From a bacterium (GTDB taxonomy: Bacteria; Vulcanimicrobiota; Xenobia; Xenobiales; Xenobiaceae): a stretch of DNA of 64,000 nucleotides. Position 1 is the first letter of the stretch, and each line of letters begins with the position of its first letter. Both the position numbers and the translations under genes were made by a program. The stretch is taken from contig JAUNIO010000002.1 in the NCBI GenBank assembly GCA_030535355.1, positions 8,781 to 72,780 of the forward strand, given 5' to 3'. This document shows positions 1,385-3,406 of the stretch, one piece after another. Under the pieces are notes generated by a model. That model made no database searches and was not told the origin of the DNA. It saw only the letters and a list, made by a program, of their open reading frames with translations.

Positions 1385-3406
1385 TTGCCGACCTACACAA
1401 GAGGACCCAAAGCCATGTTTGAGATCAGTTGTCCCTCATGCGGTAATCCGGTACAGTTTAGACGAGAAAGTTCGGTTTATTCTACCTGCGATGCCTGCGG
1501 CTCTATTTTATTGCGCAAAAATGCCAACATTGAGCTGCTGGGCAAAGCTGCCGATTTGCAGCCGGACAACACGCCCTTACAAGTAGGCACCCGCGGGCAG
1601 TATAAAGGGCAGGGCTTCGAGATCTTGGGGCGCATTCAGATCCGTCAGGAAGAAGGGTTCTGGAATGAATGGTATTTGGGCTATGACAACGGCAGCACGG
1701 GGTGGCTGGGTGAAGCCCTGGGCGAATATTTTGTATCCTTCGAAGTAAAAGAAGCCAAGCTCCCGGCGTTCAGAGACATTGCCTTAAACGATAAATTCAA
1801 ATTTAAAGGCACGGATTTTTTTGTTACCAACATAGGCAATTCCGTCGTCAGCTCTTACGAAGGCGAGCTGCCCTTCCTGATGAACGGTAGCTATAATCTG
1901 CCCAATGTAGATTTGCGCTCCCACAGTACACGCGCCGCCACCCTGGATTACAGCGATGGCGACCCCATTCTCTTTATCGGAACGTACGAAGAATTTGAAG
2001 ACCTGCGCTTTACCAATCTGCGCGATCCCGACGAACATATACAGAGGCGCACGGCAGCAGCAGTTACAACCATGAAGTGCCCCGCCTGCGGCGGCCCGCA
2101 CACTATGAGTTCAGCCGGTCCCCAATCGCAGTCTATGGCCTGCGAATACTGCGGTTCAATAATTGATATATCCAACTCCAATCAATACAGCATACTCTGG
2201 CAGGCCTCTCAGAAGGAGAAAAACCAGCCCAAGCCCAGAATTAAACTGAACAGCAAAGCTAAATTCAAGGGTGTCGAATGGGAAGTTATCGGCTGTCAAT
2301 TCAAGTATTCCCGCTATGAGGGCACAACTTACCCTTGGGAAGAATATCTCTGTTATGAGCGCTGCCACGGCTACCGCTATTTGATTTATTCCAAAGGCCA
2401 CTGGTCCTGGAGTCAGACTCTCCATGAGGTGCCCACCAATAACGTTATTTTGCAAAGCAATAAGGGCGTTAGGGGCAAAACCTTCAAACACTATGAAGGT
2501 TATGAAGGGCATGTCAAAGCGGTATTCGGCGAATTTCCGTATAAAGTGGACATCGGTGCCCGCAGTGACATCCAAGACTATATCGCCCCTCCTTATGGGC
2601 TGTCCCGCGAATGCGATTTAGTCACCAAGAACCGCGAAGTTTATTGGAGTATCGCGGAATACGTAACAGATGATGAAGTGCGCCGCGCTTTCCAGGTCAC
2701 CCATAAGAAAGAATATGTCAGCGGCATCGGTTCCTTTGAACCCAACCACCATGTGAGTACCATGTGGTACACTGCGGCAGTAGGAGCTGTTACCGTATGC
2801 CTGGCTTTCCTGTTCTGTGTATTTATGGAAATGCAGAATACGGTTGTGCACAGCCAAGACTTTCTTATCGAGACCAACAGCGAACCCAGCAAGTTGACCA
2901 AAGAATTTAAAATCGACGGGCATACCCAAGCTGTTGAAGTTGATTTTGATACGGACCTGCAAAATCGCTGGCTGTATTTTGACCTGGCTCTGGTCAACAC
3001 GACGACTAATGAAGCCACTCTGTTCAACAAGTCCCTGAGTTATTACAGCGGCAACAGCGGAGGCGAACATTGGAGCGAAGGCAGTAAAAATGGGCACATT
3101 ATTGTTCCCCGCGTGAAGCCAGGCACGTACGTTTTGCGCCTCGACCCGCAGACCGGTACCGGCAACAACCCAGACAATTTGGAACCCGGCAAAAGCGGCG
3201 GTGACAAGAAGCACCAGCGTCTAGCCTATGTTAAAGTCAAAATATCGACATCCCCGGCCTATTGGAGCTGGTTTTTCCTAATCGCTCTCCTAGGCATACT
3301 GCCTTTCCCCTGCCTATACGCCTTCCTGTGGTACAGCACCGAGTCAGAACGCTGGAGCAACAGCGATCACCCCTGGGGCGGTGACGATGACGACGATGAC
3401 GATTAG
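1385..3406 (+). CDS. 673-aa membrane protein. It has an N-terminal zinc ribbon, a DUF4178-like domain, a second zinc ribbon and a second DUF4178-like domain, then a TM helix, an exported beta-rich domain, a second TM helix and a C-terminal poly-Asp tail (GGDDDDDDD*).
   Basis: There are two CxxC...CxxC ribbons (CPSCG...CDACGS and CPACG...CEYCGS), each followed by a ~140-aa repeated module. Hydrophobic helices lie at about aa 460-485 and 615-640. The tail is encoded by mixed gat/gac codons, so it is not a homopolymer artefact. Confidence 0.75.
   Translation: MPTYTRGPKAMFEISCPSCGNPVQFRRESSVYSTCDACGSILLRKNANIELLGKAADLQPDNTPLQVGTRGQYKGQGFEILGRIQIRQEEGFWNEWYLGYDNGSTGWLGEALGEYFVSFEVKEAKLPAFRDIALNDKFKFKGTDFFVTNIGNSVVSSYEGELPFLMNGSYNLPNVDLRSHSTRAATLDYSDGDPILFIGTYEEFEDLRFTNLRDPDEHIQRRTAAAVTTMKCPACGGPHTMSSAGPQSQSMACEYCGSIIDISNSNQYSILWQASQKEKNQPKPRIKLNSKAKFKGVEWEVIGCQFKYSRYEGTTYPWEEYLCYERCHGYRYLIYSKGHWSWSQTLHEVPTNNVILQSNKGVRGKTFKHYEGYEGHVKAVFGEFPYKVDIGARSDIQDYIAPPYGLSRECDLVTKNREVYWSIAEYVTDDEVRRAFQVTHKKEYVSGIGSFEPNHHVSTMWYTAAVGAVTVCLAFLFCVFMEMQNTVVHSQDFLIETNSEPSKLTKEFKIDGHTQAVEVDFDTDLQNRWLYFDLALVNTTTNEATLFNKSLSYYSGNSGGEHWSEGSKNGHIIVPRVKPGTYVLRLDPQTGTGNNPDNLEPGKSGGDKKHQRLAYVKVKISTSPAYWSWFFLIALLGILPFPCLYAFLWYSTESERWSNSDHPWGGDDDDDDD

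Follow-up and report, generated by a model that had tools for sequence, protein, structure and literature searches.

A two-module DUF4178 membrane protein and its conserved gene neighbourhood in a member of the Xenobiaceae

A stretch of 64,000 nucleotides from a bacterium of the Xenobiaceae (assembly GCA_030535355.1, contig JAUNIO010000002.1, positions 8,781 to 72,780 of the forward strand) was analyzed and is called the window in the following. The gene at 1415..3406 was found to encode a bitopic inner-membrane protein of a widespread and uncharacterised family, in which two zinc ribbons and two DUF4178 domains are joined to a membrane-anchored beta-sandwich. As judged from gene neighbourhood, the protein belongs to a conserved operon and is partnered by a microprotein ending in lysine. 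The operon link of DUF4178 is already known (Ravi et al., 2024), and the window contains a reduced variant of that system, which is known but unstudied.

Architecture and conservation of the DUF4178 protein

The open reading frame (ORF) at 1385..3406 (+) was confirmed. From its first codon it yields the 673 aa named in an earlier description made without database searches (the sequence-only reading). Since every homolog starts with MFEISCPSCG, which matches the ATG at 1415, this start is favoured and the protein is more likely 663 aa long. Residues are numbered from this ATG unless the 673-aa form is stated. The gene has the following features.

1415..3406 (+): main gene, paralog B, 663 aa (alternative start TTG at 1385), with the order zinc ribbon (ZnR), DUF4178, ZnR, DUF4178, transmembrane (TM) helix, jelly-roll, TM helix, motif and poly-Asp tail
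1430..1498 (+): zinc ribbon 1 (C6, C9, C25, C28), invariant Cys, Zn-ribbon matches in Pfam and NCBIfam
1577..2014 (+): DUF4178 module 1 (about residues 55-200), the most conserved globular region, motifs GxWNEW, GWLGEA, EGELPF and ATLDYS
2078..2152 (+): zinc ribbon 2 (C222, C225, C243, C246), invariant Cys, PF08271 Zn_Ribbon_TF at 230-262 of the 673-aa form, weak LysW-type similarity
2258..2665 (+): DUF4178 module 2, best Pfam stretch at 292-427 of the 673-aa form (E=2e-21)
2747..2833 (+): TM helix 1 (residues 445-473), a helix at 445-473 in the AlphaFold2 (AF2) model, hydrophobic run WYTAAVGAVTVCLAFLFCVFMEM
2840..3250 (+): predicted extracytoplasmic jelly-roll beta-sandwich (residues 476-612), GExWSEG loop near-invariant
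3263..3340 (+): TM helix 2, AF2 helices 617-628 and 630-648, hydrophobic run YWSWFFLIALLGILPFPCLYAFLWY
3341..3370 (+): predicted cytoplasmic juxtamembrane motif ESERWSNSDH (E643, R646, W647, S650, D651), in 114/120 homologs
3383..3403 (+): poly-Asp tail (D657-D663), mixed GAC/GAT codons, predicted disordered

Two stretches of the protein matched the Pfam family DUF4178 (PF13785; E=2e-21, 76.9 bits compared to a cut-off of 25), and Pfam zinc-ribbon matches were found at both predicted sites. An alignment of 42 homologs, ranging from 82% down to 32% identity, shows no exchange at any of the eight Cys residues (C6/C9/C25/C28 and C222/C225/C243/C246). A BLASTP comparison of module 1 with module 2 gave E=5e-8, so that homology between the two ZnR-DUF4178 modules is still detectable in sequence. 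The AF2 model, built from the 42-homolog alignment, reached a pLDDT of 88 and a pTM of 0.77. It consists of beta-rich modules at residues 1-200 and 219-417, a helix at 445-473, a beta-sandwich at 476-612, helices within 617-648 and a disordered tail. The architecture proposed by the sequence-only reading (two zinc ribbons, two DUF4178 domains, TM helix, exported domain, TM helix and a GGDDDDDDD end) is thus borne out by the Pfam matches, the invariant Cys residues and the model, in which the exported domain is the sandwich flanked by the two helical regions. That DUF4178 is present in two copies is also seen from Acidobacterial genes that are split between the modules.

No signal peptide was found, and Cys4 zinc sites are cytoplasmic; for both reasons the N-terminal 430 residues with the zinc ribbons and DUF4178 domains were assigned to the cytoplasm. 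In the resulting topology, the modules, the motif and the tail would be located in the cytoplasm and the jelly-roll in the periplasm. Codon comparison with the 95%-identical contig L001 (dN/dS = 0.06) shows the main gene to be under purifying selection. The most conserved parts of the family protein are the cytoplasmic modules and the juxtamembrane motif. Among the columns conserved to at least 90%, W (8), E (8), D (5) and Y (5) are overrepresented.

An exact-sequence look-up of the window protein gave no match; a protein 97% identical to it (P0001) was found. A profile search against the sequences of the PDB returned generic Zn-ribbon matches only, the best being LysW (E=0.004), which agrees with the result of Foldseek, so that no function can be transferred from structure. 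PADLOC gave no defence-system match for the DUF4178 protein, the microprotein or the DUF350 protein encoded nearby, and for the neighbouring SpeE-like protein a generic methyltransferase-fold match only.

The protein search with the main protein resulted in 592 relatives at E<=0.001. The best 120 of these 592 are mostly 630-680 aa in length, with a few shorter or partial ones, and cover 86-100% of the query (most of them 98-100%). When one genome of each species was scanned, a relative was found to be encoded in at least 579 species representatives, the best match being 43% identical and located in a metagenome-assembled genome of UBP9. These representatives belong to the Pseudomonadota, Acidobacteriota, Vulcanimicrobiota/Eremiobacterota, Nitrospirota, Planctomycetota, Gemmatimonadota and other groups, among them Rhodocyclaceae (Azonexus, Dechloromonas, Accumulibacter) and Competibacteraceae (Competibacter). 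Carriers include phosphate- and glycogen-accumulating bacteria of wastewater (Accumulibacter, Competibacter) and several candidate phyla in addition to Azonexus/Dechloromonas and the Acidobacteriota. All relatives are annotated merely as "DUF4178 domain-containing protein".

The C-terminal 224 residues (TM-sandwich-TM) alone matched 1332 clusters at 50% identity. The lengths of these matches are mainly around 640 aa (two modules) or 420-470 aa (one module), and many are fragment-like with about 110-360 aa. DUF4178 and a Zn ribbon were present in all ten members sampled (10/10), so that the TM-sandwich-TM module is a dedicated partner of ZnR-DUF4178. The window protein shares the end-to-end alignment, the eight Cys residues, the TM-jelly-roll-TM region, the motif and the downstream Lys-ended microprotein with this family. 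The duplicated, membrane-anchored form, which had appeared unusual in the sequence-only reading, is the standard architecture of a large family. Its description as uncharacterised still applies, as in the literature searched DUF4178 is mentioned by one study only (preprint and published version).

Seven Acidobacterial genomes encode the protein by two adjacent genes, the break falling exactly in the poorly conserved linker between the modules (L016 9983-12007; also L048, L056, L060, L064, L069 and L071). The stop codon is TAG, TAA or TGA, each with an ATG or GTG immediately after it. Selenocysteine insertion or readthrough was considered for these stops and rejected, given the mix of stop codons, the adjoining start codon and the poorly conserved position in the linker; the split is a natural fission or the ancestral unfused state. 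Further variation was found in the related locus L082 (7913-11378), in which a two-module copy is followed by a one-module member (454 aa; ZnR, DUF4178, TM, sandwich, TM; 31% identity). The two-module copy (P0008) is B-type, 53% identical to the window protein and without a two-module paralog upstream. In L082, an inverted mnmA-nifU-iscS block is located between the family genes and the genes for the microprotein, the SpeE-like protein and the oxidase. Pairs of two two-module copies occur in the window, in L001 and in L083/L084. As the module stoichiometry varies and paralog pairs recur, the family proteins may oligomerise.

The motif [E/D]xx[R/K]Wxx-S-D-[H/Y] was found directly after TM helix 2 in 114 of the best 120 homologs; with a mean column identity of 0.67, no other segment of the protein is conserved as strongly. 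FExxRWxxSDH is a conserved, amphipathic element following the second TM helix. The sequence beyond it is highly variable and between 1 and 18 residues in length among the 114 motif-bearing homologs. At least three of the last six residues are D or E in 77 of them, 17 end within two residues of the motif and have no acidic tail, and pure Asp runs of at least six residues were identified in 10. For these reasons the acidic tail is regarded as frequent yet dispensable. Its net charge is negative in most homologs (mean -3.5), and its pLDDT in the AF2 model is below 50. Runs of 6-7 Asp are retained among relatives with 51-97% identity (P0001-P0003, P0007, P0009). An acidic end was found at 44 of 49 loci with a Band_7_1-SHOCT gene upstream and at 3 of 14 loci without one (Fisher p=2e-6, uncorrected for phylogeny in a sample dominated by Rhodocyclaceae).

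The sequence-only reading had taken the acidic tail for a conserved functional element. The conserved element is instead the juxtamembrane motif (114/120, compared to 77/114 for an acidic end), and at the sequence level the poly-Asp tail is the least conserved feature of the protein. The absence of acidic tails from orthologs, named there as a counter-argument, holds for the 17 tail-less homologs and does not hold for the 77. The mixed codons that had been noted are present in the main protein, whose tail GGDDDDDDD carries the Asp codons GAC GAT GAC GAC GAT GAC GAT, whereas the SDDD end of the upstream paralog A is encoded by GAT GAT GAT. The tail of paralog A also differs between near-identical strains, the SDDD of the window becoming VDEL in the 95%-identical L001.

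Conserved gene neighbourhood and the microprotein

In the window, the main gene is surrounded by the following genes.

3..575 (+): C-terminus of paralog A (about 190 codons) with TM helix 1, jelly-roll ectodomain, TM helix 2 and tail VMSDDD, cut by the window start, frame open to base 3
711..1325 (+): tsaC/yrdC, L-threonylcarbamoyladenylate synthase (TIGR00057, E=2.5e-58; PF01300, E=7e-49)
3419..3598 (+): microprotein, 59 aa, with an N-terminal TM helix, a polar tail and a C-terminal Lys; ribosome binding site AGGTGA 6 nt upstream
3635..5134 (+): spermidine-synthase-like (SpeE-like) polyamine aminopropyltransferase fused to seven TM helices (7TM) (NCBIfam PRK03612, E=4e-197; PF01564, E=1e-37)
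5110..6774 (+): flavoprotein resembling FAD amine oxidases, exported by twin-arginine translocation (TAT) (TAT signal PF10518 and TIGR01409; NAD_binding_8)
9713..10015 (+): short DUF350 (YjfL-family) membrane protein, last gene of the module (PF03994, E=3e-11)

For the determination of operon frequencies, the ORFs of 80 related loci were clustered, hidden Markov models were built for the conserved clusters and Pfam labels were added. The conserved same-strand order was found to be DUF350, Band_7_1-SHOCT, DUF4178 protein, microprotein, SpeE-7TM, FAD oxidase and sometimes AdoMet decarboxylase (AdoMetDC). DUF350 (PF03994) was present at 47 of 66 loci, and a Band_7_1 + SHOCT gene (PF13421 + PF09851) was located directly upstream at 57 of 71. 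The 7TM spermidine-synthase-like gene was identified within 3 kb downstream at 33 of 69 loci, the FAD oxidase with its TAT signal at 24 of 60, and a pyruvoyl AdoMetDC with the LAESH motif at 20 loci. The precomputed Pfam labels on independent contigs agree with this operon picture.

The microprotein is the tightest gene partner of the DUF4178 protein, a homolog being encoded directly downstream at 71 of 77 loci. The homologs are 45-64 aa in length (e.g. L041 11917-12060). All 58 distinct sequences, which originate from many phyla, end in K, as ...YHK or ...GGK/TGK, and keep the N-terminal TM helix and an AQYxGW-like motif; no Pfam family was matched. Between the window and L001 the microprotein gene has five nucleotide differences, all of them at synonymous third positions, and the protein is identical. 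Since the microprotein is present even at loci without polyamine genes, it appears to belong to the DUF4178 protein rather than to the enzyme.

In the window, the likely start of the oxidase is the ATG at 5131, which overlaps the stop of the SpeE-like gene as ATGA. The oxidase ortholog in the related locus L086 carries a precomputed match to Amino_oxidase (PF01593). For the SpeE-like protein, the nearest solved structures are polyamine aminopropyltransferases of Thermus. Its gene encodes a full-length member of the membrane-bound aminopropyltransferases (PRK03612), which ties the locus to aminopropyl transfer; a literature search on such enzymes returned nothing relevant. The position of DUF350 after the oxidase and before glnA-rapZ-cofD is the same in L002 and L086.

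Genes for PspA, liaIH, TPM, Band_7 and CesT/Tir were searched for by Pfam among all window ORFs up to about 19.6 kb and, beyond this position, among ORFs of 117-300 aa, and none was found. Five Pfam-annotated related contexts contained no pspA or liaIH either, and PspA, TPM and Band_7 were also absent from the related contexts examined by precomputed Pfam labels. The pspA- or liaIH-like neighbours suggested by the sequence-only reading could therefore not be recovered in this set; the informative neighbours are the microprotein, the SpeE-7TM protein, the oxidase and DUF350, none of which that reading had mentioned. An AdoMetDC gene was not detected by tblastn in the window or in L001 with three queries from related loci. 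The locus is a reduced variant with the order paralog A, tsaC, paralog B, microprotein, SpeE-like gene, oxidase, BspA-like insertion and DUF350.

In the passages on DUF4178 in Ravi et al. (2024; PMC11237479), the domain is described as a beta-strand-rich, predicted intracellular protein, encoded in operons with a 7TM spermine-synthase-like protein, DUF350, PspA/CesT or Band-7-SHOCT, AdoMetDC and polyamine oxidase. The DUF4178 protein of the CesT/Tir-PspA operon (e.g. Shewanella AAN56747) shares PF13785 and the association with DUF350 and a 7TM spermidine/spermine-synthase-like protein; PspA and CesT/Tir genes, as stated above, are missing from the scanned ORFs of the window. Compared to the DUF4178 described in these passages, the domain is duplicated here, each copy follows a Cys4 Zn ribbon, and both are fused to a jelly-roll with two TM helices and the motif. 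The PspA-free Band-7-SHOCT/AdoMetDC/polyamine-oxidase operon of the same source corresponds to the context found at the 57 of 71 family loci. With this operon the window shares the 7TM spermine-synthase-like gene, the polyamine oxidase and DUF350 (3635..5134, 5110..6774 and 9713..10015); it differs in lacking Band-7-SHOCT and AdoMetDC within 64 kb and in having a tsaC-separated paralog and a BspA-type insertion. The passages of PMC11237479 returned by a term search do not mention the two-module architecture with the two-TM jelly-roll, the juxtamembrane motif, the Lys-ended microprotein, the gene split or the sidedness of the enzyme.

Possible roles of the protein and rival explanations

Tentatively, and with somewhat less than even confidence, the most likely reading of the protein is that of a non-catalytic transmembrane scaffold or sensor of an envelope module. 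Depending on the lineage, this module would employ the SPFH-SHOCT protein, the enzyme pair of membrane aminopropyltransferase and amine oxidase, or both. On the outside of the cytoplasmic membrane, the ectodomain together with the microprotein would make contact with something or report on it. On the inside, the strongly conserved cytoplasmic modules would recruit or regulate partners, namely the SPFH-SHOCT protein where there is one, the neighbouring aminopropyltransferase in the membrane, or both. The acidic tail would assist by electrostatic contact with a basic partner or a polycation and would not form the core of the mechanism.

Recruitment of the SPFH-SHOCT protein would resemble the situation in Bacillus subtilis, where the soluble SPFH protein YdjI is brought to the membrane by YdjG and YdjH (PMC8581546; bioRxiv 10.64898/2026.02.06.704340). 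YdjG/SamG (pspA-ydjGHI) shares with the family a membrane anchor and two N-terminal Zn ribbons, and it adjoins the soluble Band_7_1 SPFH protein YdjI/SamI, which makes a functional analogy plausible. As described in the pertinent passages of PMC11237479, YdjG consists of two Zn ribbons, a YpeB/NTF2-like domain and a TM segment. It differs from the family by having this domain and not DUF4178, by the missing jelly-roll between two TM helices and by its location in a PspA operon. Homology to the YdjG family is limited to the Zn ribbons. The ydjG class had been cited in the sequence-only reading as an example of DUF4178 proteins with zinc ribbons; going by those passages YdjG is not a DUF4178 protein, and the relationship would be a functional analogy at most.

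Several observations weigh against the scaffold or sensor role. Band_7_1-SHOCT was not found in the 64-kb window (tblastn of a representative gave nothing better than E=0.8) and is also absent from L001 and L082-L084. The window protein has the longest poly-Asp tail and yet no SPFH-SHOCT gene nearby, which runs counter to the correlation of tail and SPFH. The operon frequencies are biased, because the 80 loci are those most similar to the query. Many Azonexus loci have no polyamine genes within 10 kb, for which reason the link to polyamine chemistry is regarded as facultative.

A more specific reading concerns the side of the membrane on which the enzymes act. For the topology of the SpeE-like protein, helices were defined manually and Lys and Arg (K+R) were counted across 43 homologs. 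The counts were 2.4, 1.9, 3.6 and 1.4 in the N-terminus and the even-numbered loops and zero in each of the three odd-numbered loops; the segment following TM7 is acidic (0.67 K+R compared to 3.5 D+E). Judged by the positive-inside rule, the catalytic domain would lie in the periplasm, as would the TAT-exported oxidase; such a location would be unexpected for an enzyme using decarboxylated AdoMet. As the polar tail of the microprotein with its Lys is likewise predicted to be periplasmic, near the jelly-roll, the enzymes of the operon might perform aminopropyl transfer and amine oxidation at the periplasmic face of the cytoplasmic membrane, with the DUF4178 protein and the microprotein as organisers, which we consider very unlikely. 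In its boldest version, the C-terminal Lys of the microprotein or another envelope amine would be the aminopropyl acceptor, leading to a protein- or envelope-bound polyamine modification. The DUF4178 protein would then be a transmembrane organiser that couples this chemistry to the cytoplasmic state, with the acidic tail as a contact to a polycation or partner.

Among the rival explanations, the poly-Asp tail could be a neutral, labile low-complexity extension, the juxtamembrane motif alone being of importance. The 17 homologs that end within two residues of the motif, the variable sequence and length (1-18 residues), the disorder in the model (pLDDT below 50) and a 1-nt indel that changes the tail of paralog A from VMSDDD to VDEL between 95%-identical contigs fit this explanation. 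It appears rather unlikely all the same: acidity recurs across phyla (77/114) and correlates with the presence of the SPFH-SHOCT gene, the mixed GAC/GAT codons speak against recent slippage, and the 6-7 Asp runs are kept among relatives with 51-97% identity. Alternatively, the protein might be a polyamine sensor or feedback regulator, in which the tail and the Trp/Tyr/Glu/Asp-rich surfaces of DUF4178 bind cytoplasmic polyamines and tune the aminopropyltransferase and the amine oxidase. The proximity of the SpeE-like gene (PRK03612, E=4e-197) and the TAT-exported FAD amine oxidase, the AdoMetDC in 20 related loci and the negative net charge of most tails (mean -3.5) agree with such a sensor, as does the enrichment of W (8), E (8), D (5) and Y (5) in columns conserved to at least 90%. 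This mix of residues is typical of polyamine-binding pockets such as that of PotD. Such a role is nevertheless judged unlikely, given that the nearest lineages with polyamine genes and without SPFH (Vulcanimicrobiota, UBP9) mostly have no acidic tail, that about half of the loci lack a polyamine gene within 3 kb, and that structure comparisons gave no match to any polyamine-binding protein. A carrier of the LysW type, with the acidic C-terminus as a covalent handle for building an amine substrate, was also considered. LysW/ArgW amino-group carriers resemble the protein in their small, similarly shaped Cys4 Zn ribbon and in their acidic C-terminus, zinc ribbon 2 has its best, weak, sequence match to LysW (E=0.004), and some homologs match Zn_ribbon_LysW in Pfam. 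LysW is, however, a soluble protein of about 54 aa with a C-terminal EDWGE handle and a dedicated ATP-grasp ligase, and no such ligase (LysX/ArgX-like) was identified in the window or among the conserved neighbour clusters. In addition, the similarity is at the level of generic Zn ribbons, more than 400 residues and two TM helices separate ribbon and tail, the tail is absent in many members and the terminal residue is not conserved, which makes a carrier function highly improbable.

The remaining alternative concerns paralog A. Over 182 aa, the ORF at 6..575 shares 53% identity with the main protein (residues 466-645 in 673-aa numbering), so that the tandem paralog flanking a YrdC-family gene (TIGR00057, E=2.5e-58), as noticed in the sequence-only reading, was recovered. 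As only about 190 codons are within the window, the stretch 3..575 might be a decaying pseudogene fragment of a duplication, a proviso made at that time. The missing ExxRWxxSDH motif after TM helix 2, the unstable tail and a dN/dS of 0.23 against L001, higher than the 0.06 of the main gene, would fit a pseudogene. The truncation, however, is due to the window edge. The upstream sequence could be completed from L001, in which the gene order paralog A, yrdC/tsaC, paralog B is the same and the full-length ortholog (P0005, 4720-6648) has 642 aa with all eight Zn-ligand Cys and all invariant family residues. The arrangement is retained in the more distant relative L083/L084, where paralog A has 643 aa. 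The dN/dS of 0.23 still indicates purifying selection at the codon level. Decay is thus largely refuted already and scarcely credible; paralogs A and B probably act jointly as a hetero-oligomer. The 1-nt indel is located at the 3' end of the gene (window 500..600, L001 6575..6675), and both reading frames of this stretch yield an acidic end.

The family is widespread and wholly uncharacterised, and no surprising mechanism has been demonstrated for it. By the analysis, the domain of unknown function is recast as a testable membrane complex of a two-TM DUF4178 protein and an obligate-looking Lys-ended microprotein, with facultative SPFH-SHOCT and polyamine modules. Li et al. 2019 reportedly raised the question of which role bacterial AdoMetDC/SpeE-like genes have in envelope-stress operons. 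If the complex does regulate or organise the membrane aminopropyltransferase, it would bear on this role, which is also a question in the passages concerned of Ravi et al. (2024).

Further features of the window

Adjacency of tsaC to the DUF4178 gene is confined to the window and to its close relatives, L001 and L082-L084. In a BLASTP screen, a TsaC homolog was located beside the family in 2 of 82 sources (window and L001). A functional link between tsaC and the DUF4178 protein family was rejected, the adjacency being limited to the window's own lineage; it is probably a lineage-specific synteny outside the system. Two further features were found at the distal end of the module.

7223..9465 (+): BspA-type surface-protein gene with leucine-rich repeats and Big_2 domains, between the oxidase and DUF350
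10059..10082 (+): intrinsic-terminator-like hairpin after the DUF350 gene (9-bp stem, 7 GC pairs, T-run)

The BspA-type gene is regarded as an insertion because L086 and L002 show the ancestral order oxidase, DUF350, glnA, rapZ, cofD. The local GC content rises to 0.64 at this position, and the contig of L001 ends just before it. Within the region, ORF 7223-7684, which has a lipoprotein-like signal, overlaps ORF 7537-9465 in another frame, and the two share near-identical Big_2 repeats. This overlap suggests a frameshift or an assembly problem in the repeat.

At 14772..18213 (+), two DUF4417 genes (14772-15446 and 16473-17210) bracket two ORFs without Pfam match (15448-15957 and 15945-16418). 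They are followed by a pair of an Xre-type helix-turn-helix gene and a Peptidase_M78 (ImmA/IrrE-like) gene at 17295-18213. The region may represent a small mobile or immunity-type island.

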